Shown: one piece after another, positions 6,001-61,148 of the stretch
How the letters are laid out: each line of letters begins with the position of its first letter
Position numbering within the stretch: the stretch's first letter is position 1
Virus record (IMG/VR): IMGVR_UViG_3300046513_000343
Location: 1-64,000 of that record
Length of the DNA: 64,000 nt
Strand: one strand, 5' to 3'
Origin: a virus
The notes under the pieces: model-generated
Databases searched by the model: none
What the model was told of the DNA's origin: nothing
Seen by the model: only the letters and a program-made list of their open reading frames with translations
Program-made: the position numbers and the translations under genes

Positions 6001-9000
6001 CAGCTCCGTGTCGGGGGCGATGCCGATGAAGCCGAACGACGAATGCGGCACGATGACGATGTCATAGTCGCCGGTGGCAATCTTGGCGAACAGCTTGCGG
6101 CGGCGGGACTTCTCAAAATCCTTGTTGCCGGCCGCCAGCACCTTGGCGCCGGGGTAGAGGCGGTAGGTGTCGGCGGTGAACTGTCGGACCATGTGGTTCG
6201 GCACCACGATCATCGGCTTTTTCGCCAGCCCCATGCGGCGCCGCTCCATCGCGCGCGCAATCGCCGAGTAGGTCTTGCCGGCGCCGACCGCGTGGTCGAT
6301 CAGCATGAAGCGCTCGACAATGCCGCGCCAGACGACGTTCTTCTGGTGGCGCCGCATGCTGATCACCGCATCGGGCACCTTGCCCGGCAGGATCAGGTGG
6401 GAGCCGTCATGCTGGCGCCCGACGCGGGTGTTGAATTTCTCGTTGAAGGTCTCGACCAGCAACTTGCGCCGTTCGCCGTCGGCGAACATCCAGTCGCCGA
6501 ACTCATTGTTGATGGCGCGCGCCTTGAGCAGGGCCAGCTTGGTGCGTTCCTCGTCCACCACCGTCTTGTTGTCGAAGGTGCGCATCATAATCTTGATGGC
6601 GCGGCTATTGAGTATGTCGCTGATGATGCCGGCGGCGCTGATGCCGTCCGAGCCCCATTCTTCCTCCTTGGCGTGCACTTCCGGTCCCGCCGACACGGTG
6701 AAGCTGTTGGTGGCGCGATTGAACGAGACGCGCGCGGCGCTGCCGGTGATGTGCTGCAGGAAGTCCTGATAGACCGCGGTTGGCACCCAGGTCGAGCCGA
6801 GCAGCGCGGTGACGTTTTCGGCGCCCCATTGTTCGGGCAGCACGCTTTCCAGCTCGCTGGCGTTCTTGCCCAGGCCGGCCGCGCGCGCGGCGGCCAGCTT
6901 GCGCTTGACCGCCCCGGTCAGGTAGTCGTTGCGCGTGACCCAGCCCTGCGTTTCCGGGTCGATGAACAGCAGCGGGTGCTCCGCTTGCTCGATTTCGGCG
7001 ACCGCCTCGTCCTCGCTCTTGCCCAGCAACGAGGCGATGCGCACGATATCGACGTTGCCAGATTCGGCGGTCTGGATCGCAATGGCGTCGGCCAGCGAAT
7101 CGGCCGAGGTGGGCGGCACGTACTTGACGATGACGCGCTCGGACAGGATCGCCGCTGGTTTGGCCGAAGCGGCGCGCACCGGCTCGCCGGTGGCGGCGGC
7201 CTTCTTGGCGTCGATCGCCTTGCGGTAGCCCGATTCGAGCGCCTGCACCAGCGCGCCGTCCGGCATGTTCGCTACCAGCGATGAATTGGCCGGTTCGCTA
7301 ATCAGGCCGTGCGCGGCGACGAAGGTGTGGTAGGCCTCGGCCAGCTCCTTGCGGTTGCCCTCGATCTGCTGCTCGGGCGCGTCTTCCGCTTCCAGGTTCA
7401 GCTGGTCCACCAGCGCGTCGCGCAGCGCGACCAGCTGGCGCAGGCGGGCGTATTTGGCGGCACCGAGGCGTAGCGTGGACGGCACATGCGACTCGTCGGC
7501 ATACACATGCCGCTCGTACACGTTGCGATTGGTGGGCTGGTCGCCGTTCATGATCTTGAGCGACTTGCCATCCTCTCCTTTGACCGCCTCGACTTTGTAC
7601 CATTGGCCACGGTCGTTCATCTGCAACTGCTCGGACCACGGCGAATCCGGCGTCAGGGTGCGCCGCGTCAGCTCGAACTGGCCGTTCGGCGTTTCACGCT
7701 CGGTCACCTGCTGCAAGCTGCCGTCGTTGTGCAGACGGATTGACCCCGCCTCATGCCCGGCCAGGGCGATTTGCAGCGCGTCGGCCAGGTTCGCATAGCG
7801 TTCCAGCGCGACGTCGACGGCGCTGGGCTCCTGCAGCATGACGTTTTGCGGCAGGCTGGCAATGGCGTCAGTCAGCTGCGCGGCCAGCGGGCGCGACTCG
7901 TCCGGGCGCACCGTGATGTCGTTCTTGAACTGCATCTTGCCCGAGCGTTCCAGCGTGCCCAGCACCATCTTCGGATTGGCGGCGAAATACTGGCCGGTCG
8001 GCATGGCGTCGCCGCCCAGCGGGTCCTTGACGCGCGCCACCTCGATCCATGCCGGCACCTGCGCGGCCAATTCCTGGCGCTGGCGTTCGGCCTCGGCGGT
8101 CTTGCCCTGTTTGGCCTGGTGCGCCGCAAAGGCGGCCTCCATGGCCGCTTCCTCGCTGTCGGTGTGGCGCTGCAGGAACACGATGTCGGTGACCACGCTG
8201 GTGCGGGCGTTTTCCTTGAAGGCGGTATCCGGCAGGCGGATGGCGCCCAGCAGCTTGGCGCGCTTGGCCAGCTCGATGCGGGCCGACGAGTCTTGCGCAT
8301 CCATCAGGTAGCGCGAGACCACCTGGATTTGCAGCCCGCCAGGTTTGACCGCGTCCAGCGAGGCGAGGAAGAACTGGTTGTGGATGGAAAAGCGGTTCAG
8401 TTCGGGCTTGAACTGGAAGCGCAGGTGCTGGTCGCCGAATGGCGGGTTGCCGATGGCCAGGTCGAACTGGCCATCGGGCAGCGGCACGTTCTGGAAGCCG
8501 CTGTGCAGGATCGTTTCCTGCGGGTACAGCAGGCCGGCGATGCGCGCCGTCAGGCTGTCGTACTCGACGCCGATGAAGCGCGTGCGCGCGCCCAGCGTGG
8601 CCGGCATCAGGCCGAGGAAGTTGCCGGCGCCGACCGACGATTCGAGCGCCAGACCGCCCTGGTAGCCAAGATGCGCGGCCGCCTGCCACATGCCGGCCAC
8701 CACCGTTTCGGAGGTGTAATGCGAGTCCAGCACCGAGCGCCGCGCGAGGGTGTATTCTTTTTTCGACAACAATGCTTCGAGGTCGGCGCCGCGCTGTGCC
8801 CAGCCGTCGCGGAATTTGCCCGTTTCCGGGTTGGGGAAGGAGGCGGCCAGGCCGCCCCAGCCGACATAGCGCGCCAGCAGCGCCTGTTCGGCGGGCGTGG
8901 CGCGGCGGTTATCCGCCTCGATGGCCTTGAGGGTGCGGATCGCCGCCAGGTTGTCGTTGAATTTTTCGGTCTCGCCGCCCTGGCCAAGGCGCAGGGCGGC

Positions 9001-12000
9001 GGTGATGCGGAAGTTGAGCGCCGGGATGGTCGGCGCCGGCGGGGTCAGTTCTCCGGGTTCGCCACGAACGGCCGCATCATTTTTTGATACTCCCGTTCCC
9101 TTTTCGCCAGTTCCCTTGACTCCCAATCGTCCTTTGGCTCCGGCTTGAGCAGGATGAACTTCGGCAGCACCACTTCCTCCGCCTCGTGTTCCTGATACCC
9201 CTGCATCATCAGGTCGGCGATTTCCCGCTGCGCTTTCAGCGCCGCCATCTGGATGGCCTGATTGAATTCCCCCGCCTCCTTCAGGTCCCGCGTTTTCTTC
9301 GGCAGCCATTCCTCCCAATGCTTGCGCGCCTTGATCGCCAGTGAAGTCCTGTCCATGGTCTGCCTCCTTGTTGGATGATGCTTTATTATCACCCTTTTCG
9401 GCGGCGGCGGTCATGGCGCTGACGCTGTCGTTGCTAAAATCGTTGACCGTGGCCTCACTGTCGGTGCCGCCGTGGAATTCGGCCACCGCGTTGTAGGCCG
9501 CCTTCCACTGGCGCGGGCTGATCTGGTCCACGAACGGCGCGGTCTTGTCGTTGCCGCGCATGGCGCGCGCGGCCGTGCCGATGGCCTGCTGGAACGAGCG
9601 CAAGCCTTTGCGAATCAGTAGCTCGACCACCTTCGACAGGGCCGGCAGCAAGTCGCCGGCGCTGCGCTGCGGCCCGCTCATCTTCTTGACGCCGCCGAAC
9701 ACGTCGCCCAGCACGTCGCCCAGGTCCGACAGCGCCGCTTTCAGCTCGTCATCGAGCAGCGCATCCAGGTCGACGGCCGCGGCCGGTTGGTCCTTGCCGA
9801 ACAGGTGCGCCAAATCATCGTCGCTGGCCATGGTCTGGCCCTTGGCCTTGGCGTCGGCCAGCTCGCGCTCATGCTCGGCCTGGTCGGCGGCGGCTTGCTC
9901 CACGCTGACCAGCGATTCGCCATCGGTATCCTGCGCCAGTTCCGACTTGCCGAGGCGGCGCAGCGCCACCTCGGCGTACTTGCGGCCGATCTTGTCGAGC
10001 GGGTAGAAGCGGCCCAGCTCCTTGTTGACCAGCACATAGCGCGGGATCGGCGTCTTGGAGATATTTTCGATGGCGTTGTAGCCGTCGGCGATGCGCTCGT
10101 CGATGACCTGCTTGCCGCTGATTTTGGTGGTGTCGGTGGCGCTGACCTGGAAGCGCTGCAGCTCGGCGTCGTTCTCGGCGGCGTCGTCGTCCTTTTGCTG
10201 CTGCTTTTCAGCGCGCTCGGCGTCTTCCTTGGCCTGCACGGCCCGCTCCTGCTCCGGCGTTACGCCGGCCCACGCTTTGAGCGCTTCCCAGGCGGCGCCC
10301 TGCGCGCGCGGCAGCTTCACGCCGGTCACTTCGGCGAACACCTTCTTGCTCTTGTCGTTCAGGCCGTTGGTGATCCATTTCAGGCCGAACGCATCCTTGG
10401 CCAGCAAATCGTCGGCAAAGCGCAGGTGGAAGTCCTTGACCTCGTCGGTCACGCCGTCGCGCATCAATTCGGTGGCGTAGCGCTGGGCGATGGTGGCGCG
10501 GTCAGCTGGGGCCGCCACCGCCGGCGCCTTCGCGGCCTTGGCCGGGCCGTCCTTCTTCCCTGCCGCATAGGCGGCGCGCGCATCGTCGGGATGCACGTCA
10601 ACCTTGGGCATGGCGGCGCCAGTGCGGCCGGCGTTATAGTATTTCTCGAAGTAGCTGACCAGATCGGCCGAGTCCTTGCCGTCGGCCGGGTCGATGGACA
10701 AGTGGGCACGCGCGGCCATCTTCGCCAGCGCTGCGCGCCCGCTGGCGCCATATTTTTCTTTTGCGGCCTTGGCGTCCTGCATCTTTTTCAGGCCAGGCTT
10801 GTCGTCCTTCGGTGCGTTGACATCGTCCGCGCCCTGTGACGGTTCGGCCTTGTTCGCATCCTGCGTGTCGGTGGTGGTCTTGTTGAGCTTGGCCACTTCC
10901 TTGATCAGGGCGTTGCGGGCCGCCTCGGTGTCGTAGTTTTCGTAAGTCTGCTCCATCAGCTTGCGCACGCGCTTTTCTGGCACGCCGGCTTTCAGGGCGG
11001 TGGCAATCGCGCCCGAGGCTTCCGGGTAGTCGCCGGTCAGGCGTTGCTCGGGCGTCAGGTCGGCGTAGTTGTTGGCCATGAAGAAGGCCGCGGCGAAGCC
11101 ACGCGGGGTTTCCGAACGGGCGTTCTTGGTCTCCTGGCTGCTGCCGCCGAATTTCTGGTGCATCTTGCTGCCCAGGACCGGATCGACCGGCGAGAGCGGC
11201 AGGTCGGTCTGGAAATTCCCCCACAGCATGGTCTTCTTGGTGTACGCATGGCCGAAGTTGTTCGGATTAAAACTCATGCGCGCCGGCGGCAGGCCGGTCA
11301 GGCTTTCGATGCGGCTGACCGGGTTTTCCAGCGCCCAAAATTTGGGGCGCAATTCCTCAACCAGCGACAGGGACGCCTTGACCAGTTCCTTGCTCGACTC
11401 GGTGCGCCCGTCGGCATCCTTGGCGGCGAAATGTTTAGCGCCGGCCACGGCAAAGTCGGTGCAGGGGACGGCAATGAGCATGCCGTGGATATCGCCCTCG
11501 ACGCCCATGTTCTCGGACAGGTACTCGGCGTTCAGGTCGAGTACGTCGATGCCGTTCTGAATGTCGATGGGGATCACGTTGTAGCCGGCGTCAGCCCACG
11601 GCTGACCCCACTCGCCGGTGTAATCGAACAGCGAGAGAATGATCTTCTCGCTGTTTTGCTGGCGCAGTTTGCTGTTTTCGGCCTGCTCGGTGGCGTGGTC
11701 GATCCACTTGTCCTGGTCAAGGATGGCCGATTCCAGCTCCAGCCACATCGCCTTCATTTCAGCCACCCCGCCCGCCAGCCCCTGCTTGGTGCCGACCCGG
11801 CCCGAGTCGCGCGAGACATTGTCTTCCATCTGTTCGCCGGTCATCAGGGCGCCATAGGTGAGCGGCGCGGCGTCGTAGCGGTTGGTGTAGTTGGCGGTGA
11901 TGCGGAAGTGGCGCTTGCCCTCCTTCTTGCTGCGCGCATCGCTGTCCTCCACCATGGTGATGAGCGGCTGTGCCGGGGCGTTCTCGATATCCTTGAGCGC

Positions 12001-33425: not shown

Positions 33426-33782
33426 ATGTCCTACTGCCGCTGGAGCAGCGACGACTGGCAATGCGATGTGTACGTGTACGAGGGCTGCGGCTTTGTGACG
33501 CACGTCGCGCGCAGCCGGGTCCTCGGCGCGATCCCGCCGACCCCGCCTATGCGCAACGATCCGGCGTGGCCGCGTGAATTCCTGCTGGCGCACCAGGCGC
33601 AGATGGCGTTTCTTGCGACCTGCGAGCGCACAATCATCACGCTGCCGCACGCCGGTGAGTCGTTTCACGATGACACACCGGGCGCATGCGCCGACCGGCT
33701 GGAAATGCTGCGCGCGCTGGGCTACAACGTGCCGCAGTACGCGATTGACGAACTGCGCGCGGAAGCGCTAGACGATGATTAG
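33426..33782 (+). CDS. Antisense hypothetical protein (moron-like)
   Basis: AGGAG SD; MSYCRWSSDDWQCDVYVYE...GYNVPQYAIDEL, 118 aa. Confidence 0.7.
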   Translation: MSYCRWSSDDWQCDVYVYEGCGFVTHVARSRVLGAIPPTPPMRNDPAWPREFLLAHQAQMAFLATCERTIITLPHAGESFHDDTPGACADRLEMLRALGYNVPQYAIDELRAEALDDD

Positions 33783-34286
33783 CGCCTTGCCCGTTTCGCC
33801 CAGGATCAGCACCGGAAACGCGCTTTCATAGACCGCCTGGGTGCAGCCCTCGCAGTCATCGACGGCGAAGTCATCGAACAGGATGAAGCCACCCTTGACC
33901 ATCAGCGGCGGCAGGCGTTCAAGGATCGCCTTGGTGCTCTCGTACTGGTCGGCGTCGGCATGGACGAAGCCGATTGGCGGCATCGGCACCAGCGTATCGG
34001 GGAACAGCCCCTGGATGACGGTCGCGGCCGGGATCAAGGCCTGCACCGCCTCGGCGCTGGTGTCGCCGAACTTGCCGACCGGGTTGCCGGTGTCGAGCTG
34101 GCCCTGATACGGGATGCCGGTGAAGGTGTCGTACAGGTACAAAGGGCGCCCCAGCTTGGCCAGGTGCCACGCCGAGCCGCCGCGATACACGCCCACTTCG
34201 ACAATGGCTGCGGCCGGCGCGCGGCTGGCGTAGTACATCAAGCTGTTGATGGCCAGCTGCGACAGAGCGGTATAGGGAGCGTCCAT
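33768..34286 (-). CDS. TylF/MycF/NovP-family sugar O-methyltransferase
   Basis: VEVGVYRGGS, YDTFTGIP, FVHADADQYES, GGFILFDDF. Confidence 0.85.
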   Translation of the reverse strand: MDAPYTALSQLAINSLMYYASRAPAAAIVEVGVYRGGSAWHLAKLGRPLYLYDTFTGIPYQGQLDTGNPVGKFGDTSAEAVQALIPAATVIQGLFPDTLVPMPPIGFVHADADQYESTKAILERLPPLMVKGGFILFDDFAVDDCEGCTQAVYESAFPVLILGETGKALIIV

Positions 34287-34376: not shown

Positions 34377-34404
34377 AAGAAAAAAGACCCGCCGAAGCGG
34401 GCCT
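34377..34404 (-). terminator. Rho-independent terminator after capsid gene
   Basis: GGCCCGC-TTCG-GCGGGTC-TTTTTTCTT. Confidence 0.8.
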
Positions 34405-34458
34405 TTCGGGGTAGTCCGAACCCTGGTACGGATTATAGGATGGTTGTCAAAAAGACAA

Positions 34459-35902
34459 CTATGCGGCAGAATCCCAGCGAATGATGCGCGATTGCGCAGC
34501 GGCGGTCTGAACCAGGCCGAAACCGCCCATGTAGTACCAGGCCACACCACGCTGGCGACCGTAATCGCCAGGGATCATGCCGCGCATTTCCTCGGGGATC
34601 ACGATGCCCTCGGCGACGGTGTCGTTGCCGAAGAAGTAGGCCCAGTTCGACAGGCCGTTGGTGAACGCGGCCTTGGCGATGTTGGTCTGCTCGACGAAGC
34701 GCACCGACTCGTAGCGGCCGATCTCGCCGTTCAAGATCATCTGGAAACCGGCGTCCACGTACTGGTGGACAGCTTCCAGGTCGTTCTTCAACTGGCGGAA
34801 CGTGGTCGGGTGGGCCAGGCTGATGTAGTCATCCTGGATATAGGGCGGGACGTTGCGCTCTTTCATCACGTCCACGATGGCCTTCACGTGATTTTTGCCC
34901 AAACTCACATTATTCGTCGCCGTCGCAGTGCCGTTGGTGGTCAACGTCACGGCGGAAGTCGAGGTGCCGCCGGTCGGCACCACGCGCAGCGGGGTCAGGC
35001 GGAACTGCGCCTCGGCCATGATGTCGAAGGCCTTCTTGGCGTCGTTCTTCAAGACCTTGCTGATGATCTCCTTGACCGGCTGTTCCGAGAGGTCGTCCAG
35101 CTTGGAGCTGTACGGCACGCTGTTGCCGGCCTCGGTGATGGTCATGGTGCCCTGGGTAATTACGAAGTTCGTGGTTGGCATCGCGGTGCCTTCCGTGAGC
35201 GTCGTTCCTTGGGTCGCTACATCGCTGTAAACGTTCCACACACTGTTACTTGATAACCTGTCGCTGCATTGACAGGCGGGTGGTCATTTCTGCCACCTCA
35301 CGGCGTTCATTGGGTTATATGCCGTGGTCGGACTATCGCATCCCCGTTGCCGGGGCCAACTCGCTTAGTCTCTCAGGCTGCACAGCCTTGCGGCTTGCTT
35401 GCCCCTTCTTTCCCGCTGCCGGGGGTTGAAGTCAATCAGAGTCGGTTTTAATTCCACCAGGTCGTTAATGGAATGCGTCACCCATGCCTTTACCCTGGAC
35501 AGCTGCGTCCTTGATATCAGCAAATTGACGGAATTTTGTGAGTGGCTGGACGGCCATACGCAAAACTTTTGAGAGGTTGGGGGACCACATGTATCCCATT
35601 TTGTTCAGCAGAGATCGCTACACGCTGCTCGCCGGTTCCCACTCCGGCTGCTTGCCATTTCTGGCAAGATCAGACTATTTCATCGTCCCTTGGGACGTTG
35701 CGCACTTCGGGGCGCTTGCCCCTACTCCCACCTACGGGATAGTCGTTGAACCTTCCGGCTTGCGCCGGCTTGGCTGCAGATTGTCTGCGCCTTAACGCGG
35801 TCAGAGTTCCCTGCAATTCACGCAATTATCAGTCGCCGATTACTCGGTGACGGGGCAGTGTTATTTACCCAGGCTGTTGGTGAGCCAGACTTGACCTGCC
35901 AT
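34459..35902 (-). CDS. Major capsid protein (N4-gp56-like), spliced: join(35867..35902, 35468..35596, 34459..35238), 314 aa
   Basis: AGGAG SD then MAGQVWLTNSLG | GYMWSPNLSKVLRMAVQPLTKFRQFADIKDAAVQGKGMGDAFH | WNVYSDVATQG...GEIGRYESVRFVEQ...GDYGRQRGVAWY. Exons are 36, 129 and 780 nt, all multiples of 3. Directly follows the scaffold gene. Confidence 0.9.
35239..35467 (-). ncRNA. Group I intron 2 in the capsid gene (229 nt, no ORF)
   Basis: P1 UUCCAU/GUGGAA with U.G at the splice site; terminal G (AACAGUGUG); P3 CCGACUC/GAGUUGG; P7 GAGACUA/UAGUC; P8 CCCCG-GCAA-CGGGG; several P9 hairpins. Confidence 0.9.
35597..35866 (-). ncRNA. Group I intron 1 in the capsid gene (270 nt, no ORF, with P7.1/P7.2, IA-like)
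   Basis: 5' splice after U (GGGU/GCCC P1 with U.G pair); terminal G (AACAAAAUG); P AAUUGCAGGGAA, Q AAUCUGCAGC, R GUUCAACGACUA, S UGAAAUAGUC; P3 UUGCGU/GCGCAA; P8 CGUCCC/GGGACG; P9 CUUGCCA/UGGCAAG. Confidence 0.9.
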
Positions 35903-35937
35903 GATATGTACTCCTAAAAGAGAAAGATGGACTCCAC

Positions 35938-36999
35938 CTATCCCCCGGCGCGCGCCGCCTTCATCGCCGCGATCACATCGCTGGGATTTTCGGGCTGCTG
36001 CTCGGTGGTGGTGGTTTTGGTGTTGACCGAGGCGACGTTGTCGATCGATCGTTTTTGCTCCAGCTTTGCCGTTCGTGCGGAGGACGTGGTTGGGGCAGGT
36101 TCGGCGGGACGGCCCGCTGCGGTACTCGCGGCCCAGCCGAATTTGTTGGCCATGTCCTTGCTGACGGTATCCAGTGCAGTGAAGAAGTCACTGCCGTTCT
36201 GCTCGCGCAGGCGGTGGATTTTGGTCAGGGCCAGGGCCTCCATATCGGGGTCGCTGTACAGCTCGGGATAGTCGCGCTGGTTCTGCGCTAATGCACTCTC
36301 GACTGCGAACTTCTGCTGCACTTGCTGCGTGACGGCGTTGGCGATCTGGTCAATGTCGAGGGTGGGCGCAGCCGCCGTGGCGGGTTGCTGCCGTCCTCCA
36401 ATGACCTTCTGCAGCGCGGTCAGCGCGTTTTCCTCGTCGCCCTCAAACAGGGCCTTGAGAAATTCCTTGCCTGACTCGTCCACCGGCGGGGTGTCGGTCG
36501 TGGCGGGGTTCGGGGTGGCGGTGGTTGCCGCCTGCTGGGCGCGCAGCTGGGCTTCCTGCTGTTCCAGCAACAGGCGCTGGGCCTGCGCTTCCTGGGCTTC
36601 GCGCAACAGGCGCGTGGCCTCGTTCAGGCGCTTGTCGGCGCTGCTGTTCTTCTGGTACTGGCGCACCACTTCATCGAGCGGCACATCGGTCTCGACGCCG
36701 TCGACCTTGACGCGCACCGTGGCCGGCGCCTCGGTCACGGCGGCGGGCGGGTCTGCCAGCTGCGCGGCCAGTTGCTCGGCCGGCGCCGGTGCTGGTTCAG
36801 GCTCGGCGGGTTCATCGACCGGCAGTTCGTAGCCGTTCGATTCGGCCATCTGCTGCTGGTGGCGGGTTTCCAGCGCTTCCATGGCCAGCTCGCGGGGCGA
36901 CTTCGGGACTTCTGCTGCTTCGGTGGTGGTGGGCGTTGCCGGGGTGGCTGGGGTAGCGGGTGCGGCGGTGTCTTGCACGTCCGTTGGGATAGCGCTCAT
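35938..36999 (-). CDS. Capsid scaffolding protein
   Basis: AGGAG SD; VRVKVDGVETDVPLDEVVRQYQK..SADKRL motif, coiled coil, basic C-terminal helix; lies directly before the capsid gene. Confidence 0.8.
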   Translation of the reverse strand: MSAIPTDVQDTAAPATPATPATPTTTEAAEVPKSPRELAMEALETRHQQQMAESNGYELPVDEPAEPEPAPAPAEQLAAQLADPPAAVTEAPATVRVKVDGVETDVPLDEVVRQYQKNSSADKRLNEATRLLREAQEAQAQRLLLEQQEAQLRAQQAATTATPNPATTDTPPVDESGKEFLKALFEGDEENALTALQKVIGGRQQPATAAAPTLDIDQIANAVTQQVQQKFAVESALAQNQRDYPELYSDPDMEALALTKIHRLREQNGSDFFTALDTVSKDMANKFGWAASTAAGRPAEPAPTTSSARTAKLEQKRSIDNVASVNTKTTTTEQQPENPSDVIAAMKAARAGG

Positions 37000-37090
37000 G
37001 TACGGCTCCTGAAATGCAAAAGCCCGCATGGCCAGAGCGGCGTGCGGGCAAATGTTGAAAAGCAGCGCCGCGTATGGCAGCGCTGCGGTT

Positions 37091-37573
37091 TTACTGCGGC
37101 GTGACTGGCTCGTCCAGGCAGGGCGCGCCGACCTTGCGGTAGGCGGCGCGCACGGCCTTGTTCTCGCACAGCACCTGCTTGGCCGCCGCCGTGTCGCCCA
37201 GCGAGCGCAGTTCGCGCGCGTTGAGGCGGTTGACGCATTCGACATCGTTCCAGGTGCCGCCCAGCGAGACGCCGAAGGCGATGCCCGACAGGCCGGCGCT
37301 GGTCGAGCCCATGCAGGTTTCCGACAGCGTGGTGGTCAGGGAGGGCGGCGCGATGCCCGGCGCCGAGCGCACCGTCAGCTTGTCTGGCGTGGGCGCGGCG
37401 TTGTAAATCGAGGTTTGCGCGTTACCGGCGTTGGTGGCGGTGCCGGACACCGAGCCGTTGCTGCTGGCGGTGCTGCCGGACGCACTCGTGTTGCCCGACG
37501 ACTGCGCACTGGCGCTGCCGCACAGCAGCAGGCCCGCCAGACCAAGGTACAACCAGGACAGCGGGCGCGTCAT
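37091..37573 (-). CDS. Secreted/membrane-anchored protein with Cys residues
   Basis: Signal peptide ending ASA-Q; Ser/Gly-rich segment; CMGS...EC...LC..C. Confidence 0.7.
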   Translation of the reverse strand: MTRPLSWLYLGLAGLLLCGSASAQSSGNTSASGSTASSNGSVSGTATNAGNAQTSIYNAAPTPDKLTVRSAPGIAPPSLTTTLSETCMGSTSAGLSGIAFGVSLGGTWNDVECVNRLNARELRSLGDTAAAKQVLCENKAVRAAYRKVGAPCLDEPVTPQ

Positions 37574-40258: not shown

Positions 40259-40553
40259 TCGCGTTCTCCCTTGGGTCGAGTTGAGCCTGGGTGTTGATCC
40301 CGGCCTGGATCGCGTCGTGCAGCCAGAACAGCAGCGAGTCGGCGCGTTTGATGGTCGATTGCAGCGCGCGGATGGCCTCCGGGTCGGCCGGTGAGGCGTC
40401 CACCAGATCGGCCAGCGCATCGGTGCGTTCTTCCTCGGCCTTGCGCAGCAGGTATTGCCCCACCGGCGACTTGAGGAACAGTTCCGCGTCCAGGCCCAGC
40501 TCGACGGTGGCGTACATGTCGCGCAGCTCGCTTTGCTCGAACTGGCCGCTCAC
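40251..40553 (-). CDS. Small post-portal protein (Bbp19-like)
   Basis: 100 aa, overlaps portal stop; helical, AELFLKSPVGQYL. Confidence 0.65.
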   Translation of the reverse strand: MSGQFEQSELRDMYATVELGLDAELFLKSPVGQYLLRKAEEERTDALADLVDASPADPEAIRALQSTIKRADSLLFWLHDAIQAGINTQAQLDPRENAND

Positions 40554-43399
40554 TGCGCACCGCCGTACAGCTGCACCAGCCGGTCGAAGAAGTCAGCCCC
40601 CAGCGCGGCGACGACATCGGCGGGCACGATGAAGTCACCCTGCGCCATGCCGAGTGGTTGAGCGCTGCTTGGCAGCGGCCCCTGCGCGCCGCCGCTCGGC
40701 TGGTGGAACTGCGCCACCAGCTTGTCGAAGAAGTCGCGCCCCAGCGCCGCCACGACAGCGGCCGGAATGTGGTACTCGCCGTTCGACACCGCCAGCGGCT
40801 GGCCATTGGCCTGCGCCGCAATCGAGTCGGAGGTGCCGCTGCCGGGTCCGGCGATCAGGCCGCCGTTGGCCAGCCGCCCGTTGTTGAAGGCCGACCCGGA
40901 CAGCAGGTCGCGCGTCTGCGAATACGCCATCGCATCGTGCAGCGGGCTGTTGTTGAGCGCGTTCGGGGCCAGCCCCAGCGGAGCCAGGTTGTAGCTGGCC
41001 AGGTTGTCCGGCTCGCCCTCGGCGTTGGTGAACTCGCCGCCGCGTTGCAAGGTGTTGATGTAGTCGCCCTGGCTGTTGAACTGGGTCGGGTGGATCACCT
41101 GTTGCGCCGGGCGGGCCGCCCGCTGTTCGCTGGCCATGGCGGCATATTGCAAGTGTTGCCGCTGCTGGTCGGTCAGGCCGTCGTAGCCCACCATCTGCTC
41201 GATCAGGCCGCCGTCGGCGTAGGCTGCCTGCGCAATCGAGTCGGGGCGGGTGGTCTCGATGCCGTGCCGCTCGCCGATGCCCGGCGTGGCCGGTCCGGCC
41301 GGGCGCAGGGTGGTCGATGGCGGCGGCAGCGGTGGTGCGCTGCCATCGCCCGGCGTGAACACCATGCCGGTACGCTTGTTGGTGACCTCCTTGATGCCGA
41401 GATTGGCGTCCGGTAGGCCCGGTTGCGGGAAATTCGGGTCCACACCCGGCGGTGTCGGTGGCGTGTAGCCCGCCGCCTTCATCAACACGTCGGCAATCGG
41501 CGCCACCGCAGGCACGGCGGCGATCACTTCCGCCGTCTGCATGGCCGAGAACTGCGCCTCGGTGCCCTGCTTGACTGCGTTGGCGTTCTGCACCTTGTCC
41601 TTGACGCCCATGGACGCGATCTCGGCGTCGATCTTGCGCACCGTGGCGTCGATGATCTTCGGGTCCATCTTGGCGTCCAGCGCCTGCTGCAGCTGGTCGA
41701 TGGTGGCCTGCATCTGTTTCAGCTGCGGGTCCTCGTTCTGCATGTCGAAGAAGCGCGAACCGTCTTTGTAGCCGAGCTTGCCGAACAATTCCTTAATGAC
41801 TTCCTCGACCTTCAGGCCGAGGCGCATCAGGGAACCGTCGGAGAGCATGTCGCGCAGCGCGGTCATGCCGCTAATGAACTGTTTCACCTGGTCGGTCGGG
41901 TTGGTCGCGCCCATGCCGACATTCACATTCAGGGTGAACTCCTGCATCAGCATGTCGTCGGTGACTTGATCGACGCCGAACTTCTGCGCCAGCTGCGCCG
42001 CTTCGCCGCACAGGCCGACCAGCGTTTCGTCGGTCTCGTAGAACTGTTCCAGCAAGACGATCTGGCGCAGCACCGGCTCGACCCAGGTTTCCACGAACGT
42101 GCGCAGCTGGTAGCTGGACACCTGATTGGCGTTGGTGTCGAGCAGCTTCATGCCGCCCACGGTCTCGTTCAACTTCCTGTTCGACTGCACCGACGCCCCG
42201 CTGAACGCACCGGCCATGTCGTCGAAGTCCAGGTTCAGCACTTCCTGCTCCTTGTAGCTGGAGCCGGTGACGTCGTTGAACTCGACCACCTTGACGTCGT
42301 CTACGTCCTGCATCAGCGTCACCGAGCCCGGCACGTTGCGCGTGACGCTGCGGATATCCACTTGCTTGTTGCGCCGCGCGAAGTACCTTTTGTTCATCGC
42401 CAGCTTGACGTTGTCGATGCGCTGGTTGGCCACCTCGTTGATCTCGGCCTGCACGTCGCGCGTCAGGCGCGGCACCGAACTCGGGTAGGTCTTGTGCGTC
42501 TCGATGACGCACGAGCCGATCACGTAGGGCCGCTTGCCATGGAAGTAGCGCTGTTCCAGCGGCAGCGGCTCCGACAGCAGGTGTTCGCAGCCCAGCGTGT
42601 AGTACACGTAATCCGCGTCGTCCATGCTGACGATGTTCTTATGCACCCACACGATGTTGAAGGCGTTGTTGGCCTGCTGCTGGCTTTTGCTGTCCATGCG
42701 CTGGCCTTCGCGCTGCATGCGGATGGTGTCGCCGTAGCCCTTGGTGGCCGACAGGATGACCGCGTCCGGCAGCGTCTTCCACTTCGCCTCGCCGGTCTTC
42801 GGGTCCGGCGTGTTCATGCGCGCCTTGACTTCGCCCAGGTACATCGGGATCAGCTCGATCAGGTAGGGGCTGGTGCCGACCGGATCGGTCCAGCTCGCGC
42901 CTGGATCGAAGCGCAGGTTCTCGATGGGGATCAGGCGCACCTGCGGGCGGTCCAGCTTCTTCTTCTCGTTGTATTCCCAATACTGGTAGCTGGCCACCAC
43001 GCCCACCGTCTGCGCGTCCTGATAGGCACCGACCAGCGTCAGGAACCACGGTATCGACTTGGTCAGGCGGTACTGCAGCAGCTCGGCCATGACGGCGGCA
43101 CTGGCCTGCTGCAGCGGGTCGTTGTCGTTCTCGGCGGCGATCTGCACCACGTCCTGGGTGGCGAAGAAGGCCTCGGCGGCCACCGCCTCGTTCTTCCTGA
43201 TGGTGGCGCGCGTCTTGGGGCGGAACAAACGACTACGGCTCTTGTCGGCCAGATACTTGGAGCCGACCGGGTGCTGCCCCTGCGACTGGCGCAAGTCGGC
43301 CTCGATCTGCTGACGGATCGAGGCGTCGAAGTAGCTGGTGGACGCGGTGTAGGCGTCGCGCGCCAGCGTCAGCCAGTCGGGAGCGGTGTTGGTCATCAT
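40550..43399 (-). CDS. Portal protein with long C-terminal extension
   Basis: ATGA start at 43399, 949 aa; LFRPKTR, FDPGA.W.DP, QAEINEVANQRIDNV, NETVGGM; between terL and scaffold. Confidence 0.85.
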   Translation of the reverse strand: MMTNTAPDWLTLARDAYTASTSYFDASIRQQIEADLRQSQGQHPVGSKYLADKSRSRLFRPKTRATIRKNEAVAAEAFFATQDVVQIAAENDNDPLQQASAAVMAELLQYRLTKSIPWFLTLVGAYQDAQTVGVVASYQYWEYNEKKKLDRPQVRLIPIENLRFDPGASWTDPVGTSPYLIELIPMYLGEVKARMNTPDPKTGEAKWKTLPDAVILSATKGYGDTIRMQREGQRMDSKSQQQANNAFNIVWVHKNIVSMDDADYVYYTLGCEHLLSEPLPLEQRYFHGKRPYVIGSCVIETHKTYPSSVPRLTRDVQAEINEVANQRIDNVKLAMNKRYFARRNKQVDIRSVTRNVPGSVTLMQDVDDVKVVEFNDVTGSSYKEQEVLNLDFDDMAGAFSGASVQSNRKLNETVGGMKLLDTNANQVSSYQLRTFVETWVEPVLRQIVLLEQFYETDETLVGLCGEAAQLAQKFGVDQVTDDMLMQEFTLNVNVGMGATNPTDQVKQFISGMTALRDMLSDGSLMRLGLKVEEVIKELFGKLGYKDGSRFFDMQNEDPQLKQMQATIDQLQQALDAKMDPKIIDATVRKIDAEIASMGVKDKVQNANAVKQGTEAQFSAMQTAEVIAAVPAVAPIADVLMKAAGYTPPTPPGVDPNFPQPGLPDANLGIKEVTNKRTGMVFTPGDGSAPPLPPPSTTLRPAGPATPGIGERHGIETTRPDSIAQAAYADGGLIEQMVGYDGLTDQQRQHLQYAAMASEQRAARPAQQVIHPTQFNSQGDYINTLQRGGEFTNAEGEPDNLASYNLAPLGLAPNALNNSPLHDAMAYSQTRDLLSGSAFNNGRLANGGLIAGPGSGTSDSIAAQANGQPLAVSNGEYHIPAAVVAALGRDFFDKLVAQFHQPSGGAQGPLPSSAQPLGMAQGDFIVPADVVAALGADFFDRLVQLYGGAQ

Positions 43400-43752
43400 G
43401 TGTCGAATGTGAATTCGCCCTTGAAATCGGTTTTCAGGTCGGCGTACTGCTGTTCGTTGAAGCGGCCAGCCTGCAGGCGGTAGCGCTCCAGCAGCTCGCC
43501 CCCGGCGCGGATCACGTCGGCCTTGAAGGCACTGGCGCTGTAGATATCGGGAATCTTGATGACAAAGCCCATGTTCCCCGACAGCAGCAGGTTGCGGATG
43601 ATGCACAGCCCCGTCTTCGAGTCCGCCGACACCGCCCACAAGTGCGGCGCGGGGTAGTGCGCCACCAGCGCATCGGCCATGGTCTTGGCCATCAGGTGGT
43701 CATTTGCCGTGGTGACGGCGGTCTCGTCCAGGCCGTTGAGCAGTCGTGTCAT
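43396..43752 (-). CDS. Hypothetical phage protein
   Basis: 118 aa; HYP..HLWAV...VIRAGGELLERY. Confidence 0.7.
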   Translation of the reverse strand: MTRLLNGLDETAVTTANDHLMAKTMADALVAHYPAPHLWAVSADSKTGLCIIRNLLLSGNMGFVIKIPDIYSASAFKADVIRAGGELLERYRLQAGRFNEQQYADLKTDFKGEFTFDT

Positions 43753-45156: not shown

Positions 45157-46773
45157 TCACATGCCGTCGGCGTAGGTTTCCGGCTCCAGCATGCGTTCGT
45201 CGATGATCTGCGGCGGCACCGGCTCCATGTCGTACAGGCGGCTGGCGGCGTCGATCAGGTCCTTCTTGGCGCTGAACGGGTAGGTCAGGAATTCTTCGAG
45301 AAAACCCTTGTTCAGGCTGTACACATTGCCCTCGTGGTCGCGGCGCTGCACCGGCTTGAAGATGCGGAACGGCTGGCCCTGCTCGCGGATGCGGCGCTGG
45401 TTGGCGGTCTCGGTGGGCGTCACGGTGGCCAGGAAGAACTTGTGCCCCATGAAGTCGGGCTGCAACCTCTGCACGCGGTCGTCCTTGGCCTGCGCGCCGT
45501 CGGAAGTCCAGTTCAGTTCCTCGATGGCAAACGCATCCTTGTCGCGCACCATTTGTTCCTCGAAATACTCAAGGTCGGCCTGCATGCCATAGCGCTCGTA
45601 GCCGACCTTGACCATTTGCACGCCCGGTTGTGCCAGCCACACGCGGCGCAGGCCGCGCAGGGCCTCCCAGCGCTCGCGCAGGCCCATCTTGTGGCGGTAG
45701 CCGTCCAACAGATATTTGTTGTTGCCCGCGTCGACGCCGATCACCGCCATGGCCGTGTTGTCCGACCCCTTCTTTTTGCTGTGGGCCGGGTCAACCATGA
45801 TGTACACGTTGAGCGTGGCGGGCCGCACATCGATGAACGACAGCCACTCCTTGCGGAACATCGCCTCGTTGCCCGCCGCCGGGTTCTGCAATTGCTGGCA
45901 GGCGATGGTGGCCGGACCCTGCACCAGCTTCTTGGCAGCCCACGCCTCGGCGGTCAGGAACACCGGCACGCCGTCCGGCATGCCGTTGGCGGTGGCCGGG
46001 AAGATGCGCGCCTTCAATGCGCCGCGCTCCAGGATGGCGTTGTAGCTGTCGGCAAAGCTGTAGCGGGTCCCAAAATGCCATGCGCGCGTGTTGCCGTTCT
46101 CACCGCGCGCGCCCAGGTTGTCGGACAGCTCCCATGCGCTGGTGGTCTTGCTGACCTGATCCGGCGTGCTGACCGACTCGCGCGTGACGACGTCGTCATA
46201 CACGCGCAGCATGAAGTGCGCGCCGGTCGGCTGACCATCGACTAGGCCGTGCGCCTCGACTGACGCCTCTTTGGGGTTGGACTTGCGGCGCACCACAATG
46301 CCCTTTTCCTCGCTCCACTTGCTGCTCTCGTTGCGCGGGTCGGCGTACAGCACGTCCGGGTAGGTCTGCTGCAGCTCGCGGTTCGCTTCCAACTCCTGTT
46401 TGATCTGCAGCAGGAATTTACGGGCAACGGGCTTGGTATGGCTGAAAATGCCGATGGTGCACTCGGGGTCGATCAGCAGTTCCTGGATGATCCCGGCGAA
46501 ACTGCCCAGGGTGCTCTTGTAATGCTCGCGCGCCCATAGGTCCAGGTGCCCATCCGGGGCCGCCTCCAGTTCGCGGCAGCGCGCGTACAGCCACGGATGC
46601 ACCGCATCGAGCCGGTGCAGCAGGCGCACCAGCAGATAGAAACGGTCATTGCGGCCCAGCCAGGCCTTGCCCGGCAGGCCGTATTGGCGTTCGATGACCT
46701 GCCATAGGTCGGCAATGCAGTCAAACGGCGCACTCTGCAGCGCCACCCTTACATCACTCGGTAGCGTCAGCAT
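45157..46773 (-). CDS. terL: Terminase large subunit
   Basis: WAREHYKST Walker A variant, YDDVV Walker B, GTRY, VDPA...SDNTAM nuclease motif, KDLIDA. Confidence 0.9.
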   Translation of the reverse strand: MLTLPSDVRVALQSAPFDCIADLWQVIERQYGLPGKAWLGRNDRFYLLVRLLHRLDAVHPWLYARCRELEAAPDGHLDLWAREHYKSTLGSFAGIIQELLIDPECTIGIFSHTKPVARKFLLQIKQELEANRELQQTYPDVLYADPRNESSKWSEEKGIVVRRKSNPKEASVEAHGLVDGQPTGAHFMLRVYDDVVTRESVSTPDQVSKTTSAWELSDNLGARGENGNTRAWHFGTRYSFADSYNAILERGALKARIFPATANGMPDGVPVFLTAEAWAAKKLVQGPATIACQQLQNPAAGNEAMFRKEWLSFIDVRPATLNVYIMVDPAHSKKKGSDNTAMAVIGVDAGNNKYLLDGYRHKMGLRERWEALRGLRRVWLAQPGVQMVKVGYERYGMQADLEYFEEQMVRDKDAFAIEELNWTSDGAQAKDDRVQRLQPDFMGHKFFLATVTPTETANQRRIREQGQPFRIFKPVQRRDHEGNVYSLNKGFLEEFLTYPFSAKKDLIDAASRLYDMEPVPPQIIDERMLEPETYADGM

Positions 46774-59895: not shown

Positions 59896-60900
59896 CTACT
59901 CTACTGGAGCGCCCTCGCTGGTGCGTTTTTTTGCCTTGCCCGCCAGCCGCGCCGCCACCCACTCAGCGCTCTGTTTTTTGCCGAGCTTGGCTGCCGACAG
60001 TTTGGCGCGGTGTTCTGGCGTAAGTACCTTACCCTTGTTTGCCTTGCCCAAGTTGGCCAGGTGCTCTGCGGTTTTAACCCTGCCCTTGAGCTTCGCCGAT
60101 ATTTGCGCTCGCGTTGCCACCGAAATGACCTGCCCCTTGTGCGCTTCGGATAACTTGGCGCAGAACTCGGCGCTCATTATCATATTCTTGTTCCATGGGG
60201 TCGCCGGTGGGCTTGGCAGCTTCGGCGGTGGGGGTGGCAACATCGCCAGCTTGCGCGCACGGTTCGCCGCTTGCGTTGCGAGCCTTTTGGTGACCTGCTC
60301 TGGCGGCTGCTTCTTGCCAATTTTTGCCGCCGCAAGACGAAATCTGGTTTCAGGCGACACCGTGCGGCCTTTGGCGTTTGAATTGCCCATGCCAGCTTCG
60401 CTCAACCGCTTTTTCGTTTCATCCGAGTGGTGGGACAGTTGCTCTTTTTTTGCCTTGGAGATTGCCGCCCCACGCTCTGGCGGATAGGGGCCACGCTTCT
60501 TGCCTTTTTGCCCGGCACCGATATTTGCCCGCCACTCTGCTGACATCACGCGGCCCGTTAAGGACTTGCTGATATTGGCACGATGTTCTGGTGAATTTGT
60601 CATGCCTAACCGGCTACCGGCCGTCGCCGTCATGTTGTACCCCGATGCCCAGGCATCGAAACCGTCAATCGCGCGCTGCTCGTAGAACAGCAAGTCCTTC
60701 TTCTCGCAGCAGAACAAGATCACAAACACGAATGTATCCTTGCCGTACTTGATCCACGCTCGTTGCAGCTTGCTGCTGTGGTGGCAATTAGTATTGAGTT
60801 CGTGCCTATGCTTTATGAACCGCTTAGAGAAATGCACAGCGCTACCGACATACCGCTTGCCGTTGCTGGTATTAATGATTGCGTACACACCGGATTTCAT
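59896..60900 (-). CDS. Free-standing GIY-YIG homing endonuclease with NUMOD3 repeats
   Basis: GAGGTG SD; MKSGVYAIINTSNGKRYVGS...R...H...LQRAW.KYG...E...GYN, then many (H/M)S.E.RAK(L/I)S..KG repeats; lower GC than neighbours. Confidence 0.9.
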   Translation of the reverse strand: MKSGVYAIINTSNGKRYVGSAVHFSKRFIKHRHELNTNCHHSSKLQRAWIKYGKDTFVFVILFCCEKKDLLFYEQRAIDGFDAWASGYNMTATAGSRLGMTNSPEHRANISKSLTGRVMSAEWRANIGAGQKGKKRGPYPPERGAAISKAKKEQLSHHSDETKKRLSEAGMGNSNAKGRTVSPETRFRLAAAKIGKKQPPEQVTKRLATQAANRARKLAMLPPPPPKLPSPPATPWNKNMIMSAEFCAKLSEAHKGQVISVATRAQISAKLKGRVKTAEHLANLGKANKGKVLTPEHRAKLSAAKLGKKQSAEWVAARLAGKAKKRTSEGAPVE

Positions 60901-60943
60901 TTTCACCTCGCGGTCGATGTGTACATTGTATTGCCTGGATTCC

Positions 60944-60970
60944 AAAAAAAAAGCCCGCGCGAGGCGGGCT
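60944..60970 (-). terminator. Rho-independent terminator
   Basis: AGCCCGC-CTCGC-GCGGGCT followed by a long T tract. Confidence 0.75.
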
Positions 60971-60995
60971 GAACGTGGTGAACGTGGTGTCAGTC

Positions 60996-61148
60996 TCAGC
61001 GCGAGCCTGGCGGGGAATTGTTGGGCAGCAGCCACCAGCCGAGCTGGCGGCGAATTTCCACCGGCGTGCCCGGTGGCGTGGGCGCTTTAGCGCGCTCCTG
61101 CAGGTAGTGGCGGACAGCTTCTTTCGTCGGCGGGATCACGGTCGGCAT
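60996..61148 (-). CDS. 50-aa small protein (below ORF-track cutoff)
   Basis: AGGAGG SD; MPTVIPPTKEAVRHYLQERAKAPTPPGTPVEIRRQLGWWLLPNNSPPGSR. Confidence 0.65.
   Translation of the reverse strand: MPTVIPPTKEAVRHYLQERAKAPTPPGTPVEIRRQLGWWLLPNNSPPGSR

Follow-up and report, generated by a model that had tools for sequence, protein, structure and literature searches.

The major capsid gene of an uncultured soil phage was found to be of the N4-gp56 type (TIGR04387) and, as confirmed by analysis of its sequence, to be cut in three by two group I introns. Both inserts are predicted to be removed by splicing (probability about 0.88). The gene is carried by IMGVR_UViG_3300046513_000343, a linear viral contig of 77,777 bp with an estimated completeness of 79%; the first 64 kb of this contig (64,000 nucleotides) were analyzed and are referred to as the window. 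The sequence of the phage is present in rhizosphere and soil metagenomes. An earlier note on the window had proposed that the capsid gene is interrupted by two group I introns lacking ORFs, and this proposal was upheld, by the Rfam model RF00028 for intron 1 and by the model R1 together with the fold for intron 2.

The interrupted capsid gene and its boundaries

The capsid gene is located in a head module on the minus strand, which also contains a DNA methyltransferase gene and, further along, a head-closure protein gene. The surroundings of the gene include the following features.

45157-46773, minus strand: terminase large subunit (head module)
40550-43639, minus strand: portal (head module)
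35938-37245, minus strand: ORF of 435 amino acid residues, just upstream of the capsid gene (head module)
34379-34409, minus strand: terminator-like hairpin and T run after the capsid stop codon (consensus scan, pattern match only)
33768-34286, minus strand: TylF-like O-methyltransferase (Pfam PF05711, E = 2.3e-13)
59896-61035, minus strand: free-standing GIY-YIG and NUMOD3 gene of 379 amino acid residues, Seg/I-TevI-like homing endonuclease

The 435-aa ORF stands in the scaffold position; it matched no entry of Pfam or PHROG, and its product has a high content of Ala, Pro, Thr, Glu and Gln. The capsid gene and the terminator-like hairpin are followed immediately downstream by the TylF-like gene.

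In the ORF track of the window, only a truncated capsid ORF of 260 amino acid residues is given (34459-35241, minus strand), as the earlier note had observed, and its GTG "start" is formed by the last three bases of intron 2. Exon 3 matched phrog_1357 (major head protein) with E = 1.1e-17, and the match of the 260-aa ORF begins at profile position 72, so that ~70 N-terminal residues are missing. The elements of the complete gene are as follows; the Shine-Dalgarno sequence and the ATG had been recognized earlier and were found again (AGGAG, 35915-35911).

35911-35915, minus strand: Shine-Dalgarno AGGAG, 8 nt 5' of the capsid ATG at 35902 (read from the sequence)
35867-35902, minus strand: capsid exon 1, 36 nt, aa 1-12, MAGQVWLTNSLG, 3' end ...CUGGGU
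35597-35866, minus strand: intron 1, 270 nt, ORF-less group I intron
35468-35596, minus strand: capsid exon 2, 129 nt, aa 13-55, 3' end ...AUUCCAU
35239-35467, minus strand: intron 2, 229 nt, ORF-less group I-type intron
34459-35238, minus strand: capsid exon 3, aa 56-314 and stop

When the frame is read from the ATG at 35902 without joining, 12 residues (MAGQVWLTNSLG) are followed by AAA TAA, and the unspliced mRNA would give only a 13-aa peptide, as had been claimed. When 35902-35867, 35596-35468 and 35238-34459 are joined, with the 43-codon island noticed earlier as the middle piece, a continuous open frame of 314 amino acid residues is obtained; most close homologs are equally long, and several of them are named "N4-gp56 family major capsid protein" in their source. 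An alignment to intron-free capsids had been proposed as a check, and the joined N-terminus aligns with uninterrupted 314-aa homologs across both joins. The uninterrupted homolog P0004 shows 100% identity to exon 1 over aa 1-12 (tblastn) and to exon 2 over aa 13-55 (amino acids), and it is identical over the 67 N-terminal residues compared. The spliced protein was scored on TIGR04387 through an identical proxy, the capsid protein of locus L014 (0 differences in 314 residues from the joined product). It reached 66.4 bits, above the curated NCBI cut-off of 60 bits, and exon 3 alone reached 54.3 bits, under this cut-off; the expectation that automated annotation would miss the gene was therefore correct. 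The split gene is the only capsid gene that was found on the contig.

Locus L014 represents an intron-less sibling phage in which the same capsid gene is uninterrupted and nearly identical, and the boundaries of both inserts were thereby fixed exactly. The DNA of the window is 99.1% identical to that of L014 in the 2.4 kb upstream and 97.5% identical in the 1.3 kb downstream, exon 3 is 98% identical at the DNA level, and the segments that are exactly absent from L014 are 35866-35597 (270 nt) and 35467-35239 (229 nt). With these boundaries, each insert begins after a U that is paired as U.G in P1 and ends in G, in agreement with the earlier description. At both sites the splice-site U of the window is a C in L014; this third codon position is C in 62 of the 82 uninterrupted alleles at the first site and in 52 of the 82 at the second, and it is T in the intron-bearing junctions examined. 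Moreover, the exon-intron arrangement recurs with point differences in L015, L016 and L035, which are separate metagenome contigs from other samples, and this argues against an assembly artefact.

Inteins were ruled out by the in-frame stop codons in both inserts, group II introns by the small size of the inserts and their wrong core, and a frameshift or translational bypass by the sibling DNA, which shows exact ribozyme-bounded deletions.

Two different ribozymes

From its sequence, intron 1 is assigned as a conventional Rfam-type group I intron. It matched RF00028 (Intron_gpI) over the full model length at 35876-35651 with 75.9 bits (E = 1.7e-17), above the gathering threshold of 50 bits, and P1 (with its U.G pair), the core from P3 to P8 and P9 are all contained in the alignment. 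About 54 more bases lie between the end of the match and the 3' splice site, and the 3' terminal base is G. The guide GCCC (~35856-35853) pairs with the exon sequence GGGU, with the U.G pair at the splice site. In cultured phages, blastn revealed sequence related to intron 1 at genes for DNA polymerase and terminase.

For intron 2, no RF00028 match was obtained even at E <= 10, and the permissive Rfam search gave chance sRNA matches only. The earlier note had looked to RF00028 for both inserts; intron 1 was matched but intron 2 was not, and since the model is blind to intron 2, the absence of a CM hit would wrongly count against it. Its position below the RF00028 threshold reflects the reach of a single model and does not define its biology. 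On the basis of the sequence fold and of its relatives, intron 2 was confirmed as a group I-type ribozyme with the following elements.

35457-35451, minus strand: guide GUGGAAU, pairs with exon AUUCCAU, U.G at the splice site
35445-35439 with 35362-35356, minus strand: P3
35431-35428, minus strand: P4, 4 bp only
35370-35366 with 35335-35331, minus strand: P7, forming the P3/P7 pseudoknot
35355-35342, minus strand: P8
35326-35299, minus strand: P9
35297-35279, minus strand: P9a
35276-35257, minus strand: P9b
35239, minus strand: terminal G

The P2 hairpin is missing, and P1 leads straight to P3. Both inserts contain GACUA...UAGUC, with the same letters as the Rfam consensus (letter-level comparison); the earlier note had read these letters correctly, but the motif it called "P3/P7" is P7.

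The conserved 3' hairpin motif of intron 2 recovered 29 stretches in viral contigs. Three relatives that share the 3' domain of intron 2 (P7'-P9-P9a-P9b) are Rfam-positive group I introns (L097, L108 and L121), and in these the Rfam match stops just 5' of the shared hairpin, which identifies the hairpin as a P9 extension. The model R1 was derived from intron copies in unrelated genes, three of them in an HK97-type capsid gene and the others in a tail-tube-like gene and a P22-type coat gene, and its training set contains no sequence of the capsid family of the window. R1 matched the window once, at 35449-35239 (138 bits, E = 1.4e-31), with the match ending exactly at the predicted 3' splice site, and it also matched L097, L108 and L121.

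The fold consisting of P3, P4, P5, P6/P6a, the P7 pseudoknot, P8, P9, P9a and P9b was found in all nine copies (9/9). Compensating changes were observed in P3, P4, P5, P6, P7, P8 and P9b of the family, with the variants CUUC/GAAG and CUUG/CAAG in P4, GGC/GCC, CGG/CCG and CGC/GCG in P6, and GACUA/UAGUC and GACUG/CAGUC in P7. In a ten-sequence alignment, pairing was retained in 98.5% of cells versus 80.7% in shuffles and 33-48% in slid controls, 20 of the 34 pairs were changed on both sides, and none of the 500 shuffles reached any observed measure; because the alignment was model-fitted and the sequences are related, these figures are somewhat inflated in favour of structure. P9 and P9a rest on per-sequence folds, and MAFFT put the variable hairpins in inconsistent columns. 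As judged from these sequences, the intron 2 family is compact and P2-less, combines a short P4-P6 domain with a P9a hairpin that is conserved, and is widespread in phage structural genes.

The P10 pairings look weak in both introns. We infer self-splicing, and the efficiency with which it would proceed, from the folds; autonomous catalysis would be less certain for intron 2 than for intron 1, given the lack of an RF00028 match, the missing P2 and the 4-bp P4.

Probable transfer of the introns and distribution of their relatives

The capsid coding sequences of the window and L014 differ at 37 positions, all of them synonymous, and 27 of these differences lie between spliced positions 21 and 174, a stretch that encloses both insertion sites. 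When informative sites were compared among the window, the intron-less L014 and the intron-bearing L015, the window agreed with L014 upstream (24/25 sites), with L015 from +21 to +255 (30/34 sites) and again with L014 beyond +276. Since L015 is elsewhere only ~88% identical to the window, this pattern shows that one tract carries both introns; it comprises ~235-305 nt of exon and 499 nt of intron, and exon 2 lies inside the patch. The sequence comparison thus points to a joint arrival of both introns in a single recombination tract, and the tract fits what would be expected from co-conversion during homing or from recombination between co-infecting phages. The event may have been an intron gain in the window lineage or an intron loss in L014.

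Both states coexist in soil DNA. In the soil DNA run X7, a contig without both introns was present at ~254x and contigs with introns at 7-12x. Intron 1 is exactly missing from the high-depth soil DNA contig, as it is from L014. Such a polymorphism in intron presence, together with the recombination tract, is consistent with selfish mobile elements.

Among 93 related loci, inserts were found after aa 12, 35, 55, 184 and 293 of the capsid, and occupancy varies freely between the sites; of the 90-odd related alleles examined, 82 full-length alleles are uninterrupted. Introns of the intron 1 type follow CCUGGGU/GG at aa 12 and at aa 293. The introns at aa 55 (exon UUCCAU, guide GUGGAA) and aa 35 (exon UUCCGU, guide GCGGAA) belong to the same family, in which the seventh guide-exon pair co-varies (A-U, G-C, C-G). 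The CUGGGU sites (aa 12 and 293) thus form one look-alike pair and the UUCC(A/G)U sites (aa 35 and 55) the other.

Long introns at aa 35 and aa 55 in relatives carry ORFs with a LAGIIDGEG motif. A LAGLIDADG type is tentatively suggested by this visible motif, with weak Pfam support from LAGLIDADG_3 (E = 0.0019 for the ORF of L038, no match for that of L037). No endonuclease ORF was found in the window introns: neither the 51-aa ORF in intron 1 nor the 52-aa ORF across the exon 2/intron 2 junction had a Pfam match, and a search of the contig gave no LAGLIDADG or HNH gene. The GIY-YIG/NUMOD3 gene, ~24 kb away from the capsid gene, is a candidate trans-acting nuclease, and nothing ties it to the capsid sites. 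When the aa-55 intron of L038 (618-1371) was compared with that of the window (35239-35467), P1 and the 3' domain were the same and the P3-P6 region differed (UAUGCUGGAA type). The different P3-P6 region means that the ORF-less intron is not a simple deletion derivative, and the introns at the aa-55 site may themselves be mosaic in sequence.

It is possible, and proposed here only tentatively from the sequences, that the two ribozyme families choose their sites mainly by the guide, each occupying two look-alike sites in the capsid gene with its guide retuned. In nuclear rDNA, group I introns have been described to reach look-alike sites through reverse splicing (Bhattacharya et al. 2005, PMC1299323; review PMC3984707). 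As in that system, one family occupies two sites that share a guide-complementary hexamer; unlike in nuclear rDNA, the sites lie in a phage protein gene. Endonuclease-bearing copies stand at the same sites, and given these, DNA-level homing to similar sites may also be considered. If choice by the guide were true, spread would occur by reverse splicing or by endonuclease-free recombination, including the movement of an intron pair as one cassette, and a compact ribozyme lineage would have specialised on phage virion genes (P22-type and HK97-type capsids, tail-tube-like genes).

Further copies were observed at other loci. L102 (minus strand, ~7800-9540) contains a capsid homolog that is ~61-73% identical over the aligned exon pieces, with an endonuclease-bearing intron at the aa-55 site and a second insert after "...TQFTI" (~aa 82) that carries a double-motif LAGLIDADG ORF and represents a sixth family site. 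In L114 (2012-3301; IMGVR_UViG_3300020042_009242), an HK97-type capsid gene with the C-terminus ...DPLNQRQTMGWKG... contains, in a stretch of 1.3 kb, three members of the intron 2 family, each with a guide matched to its own exon. The intron 2 family was also found in a tail-tube-like ORF (...VTAFGDTNKS... / ...VQGLPDISGSLGGFWD...) in L095 (~1100-1600) and L105 (~400-900), where an extra hairpin lies between the P1 region and P3 and the 5' splice site could not be fixed. L124 (GenBank MW202674.1, locus 1185-2700) has a family copy inside a "P22 coat protein" gene (R1, 163.9 bits), the exact 3' splice site of which was placed from the reading frame only.

Rival readings and relation to known systems

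In the preferred reading, the capsid pre-mRNA would carry two different group I ribozymes, both of which must self-excise. In each intron, guanosine would attack at the U.G pair of P1 and the exons would be ligated after the terminal G, giving the mRNA for the 314-aa N4-gp56-type major capsid protein. Both introns would be selfish mobile elements without an endonuclease gene of their own, and they would have come jointly, with ~235-305 nt of flanking exon, through recombination with an intron-bearing relative, a route deduced from the tract.

It is unlikely that intron 1 self-splices and intron 2 is degenerate or non-autonomous, so that a host or phage helper would be required or splicing would be poor, with capsid output limited or the gene decaying. 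The failure of Rfam to match intron 2 at E <= 10, its missing P2, its short P4 and its weak P10 speak for such a state, but compensating changes keep all core helices in ten copies from four different host genes, intron 2 is found in several independent contigs, and the gene it interrupts is the only capsid gene found on the contig. In exons 1 and 2, moreover, only synonymous change separates the window from L014, and the whole protein shows no amino-acid difference in 314. Another proposal is that the inserts are non-splicing or an assembly chimera, leaving a capsid pseudogene of a defective phage, or that the protein starts at the GTG at 35241. ORF callers do give only the 260-aa ORF, and the contig is linear with 79% estimated completeness; however, L015, L016 and L035, which come from other samples, repeat the same arrangement with point differences, thousands of homologs share the conserved 55 N-terminal residues, the differences in the exon patch are all synonymous, and the GTG consists of the last three bases of the ribozyme and has no ribosome-binding site. 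This proposal is considered extremely improbable.

The earlier note had left the choice between pure parasitism and a guanosine/Mg2+-sensitive check on head assembly. The polymorphism and the tract fit the former, whereas the checkpoint was unsupported, and splicing as a regulatory gate on capsid synthesis (guanosine/Mg2+ sensing or timing), beyond tolerated parasitism, is regarded as very improbable. The points in its favour are circumstantial: both introns fall in the initial 165 nt of the late gene with the highest expression, and translation of unspliced RNA ends after 13 codons. Nevertheless, the sibling with an identical capsid protein and ~99% identical flanks has no introns, 82 of the 90-odd related alleles lack interruptions, the intron-less form is dominant in one soil sample, and intron occupancy varies freely between sites.

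That group I introns can interrupt capsid genes had been established before, and the rarity suggested by the earlier note was overstated. Such introns were published for the capsid genes of Tuc2009 and mycobacteriophage LittleE (Pope et al. 2013, PMC3706429); the single intron of LittleE is 819 bp long and contains an endonuclease ORF, and its splicing was demonstrated by RT-PCR and N-terminal protein sequencing (PMC3706429). As in LittleE and lactococcal Tuc2009, the interrupted gene is a major capsid gene of a tailed phage, an intron-less relative defines the intron, and a U stands before the 5' site and a G at the end. Unlike LittleE, the gene of the window has two ORF-less introns of different families, 129 nt apart, whose splicing is predicted from the DNA. 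Intron-dense phage genomes are also known (PMC12880540), and in crAss-like phages of the Delta and Zeta groups the MCP genes contain several group I introns that divide them (Yutin et al. 2021, PMC7886860). The likeness to the crAss-like phages lies in several group I introns within major capsid genes of uncultured phages and in the confounded annotation. The crAss-like introns, from phages of gut Bacteroidota, were recognised mainly by encoded endonuclease domains, whereas those of the window are ORF-less, one of them escapes Rfam, and the source of the phage is soil or rhizosphere. What is added here is an Rfam-invisible intron family, a near-isogenic intron-less sibling and a sharply bounded tract.

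Three small ORF-less group I introns in one late gene, orf142 of Staphylococcus phage Twort, were reportedly described by Landthaler and Shub in 1999; these are said to be closely related IA2 ribozymes whose splicing was demonstrated experimentally. As in Twort, the introns of the window are small, ORF-less and close together in one late gene; unlike in Twort, they belong to two different families. Where several introns lie close together in one late gene, exon skipping is possible, and in the window it may likewise occur. A direct join of exon 1 to exon 3 would keep the frame, since exon 2 measures 129 nt, and the product would have 271 aa.

The arrangement has consequences for annotation, as gene callers yield a 260-aa fragment under the NCBI naming cut-off. 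Public databases contain shortened calls of the same capsid of 253-300 aa (for example 300, 280, 265 and 255 aa), and in MW202674.1 the annotation divides the P22-type coat gene into two CDSs and places a spurious 40-aa "hypothetical protein" at the position of the intron. Since one of the two introns is invisible to RF00028, intron counts in phage metagenomes that are based on this model are underestimates. Finally, because the near-isogenic pair is accompanied by a sharply bounded, synonymous recombination tract, the intron-plus and intron-less phages provide a clean natural system for the movement of ORF-less introns between phages.
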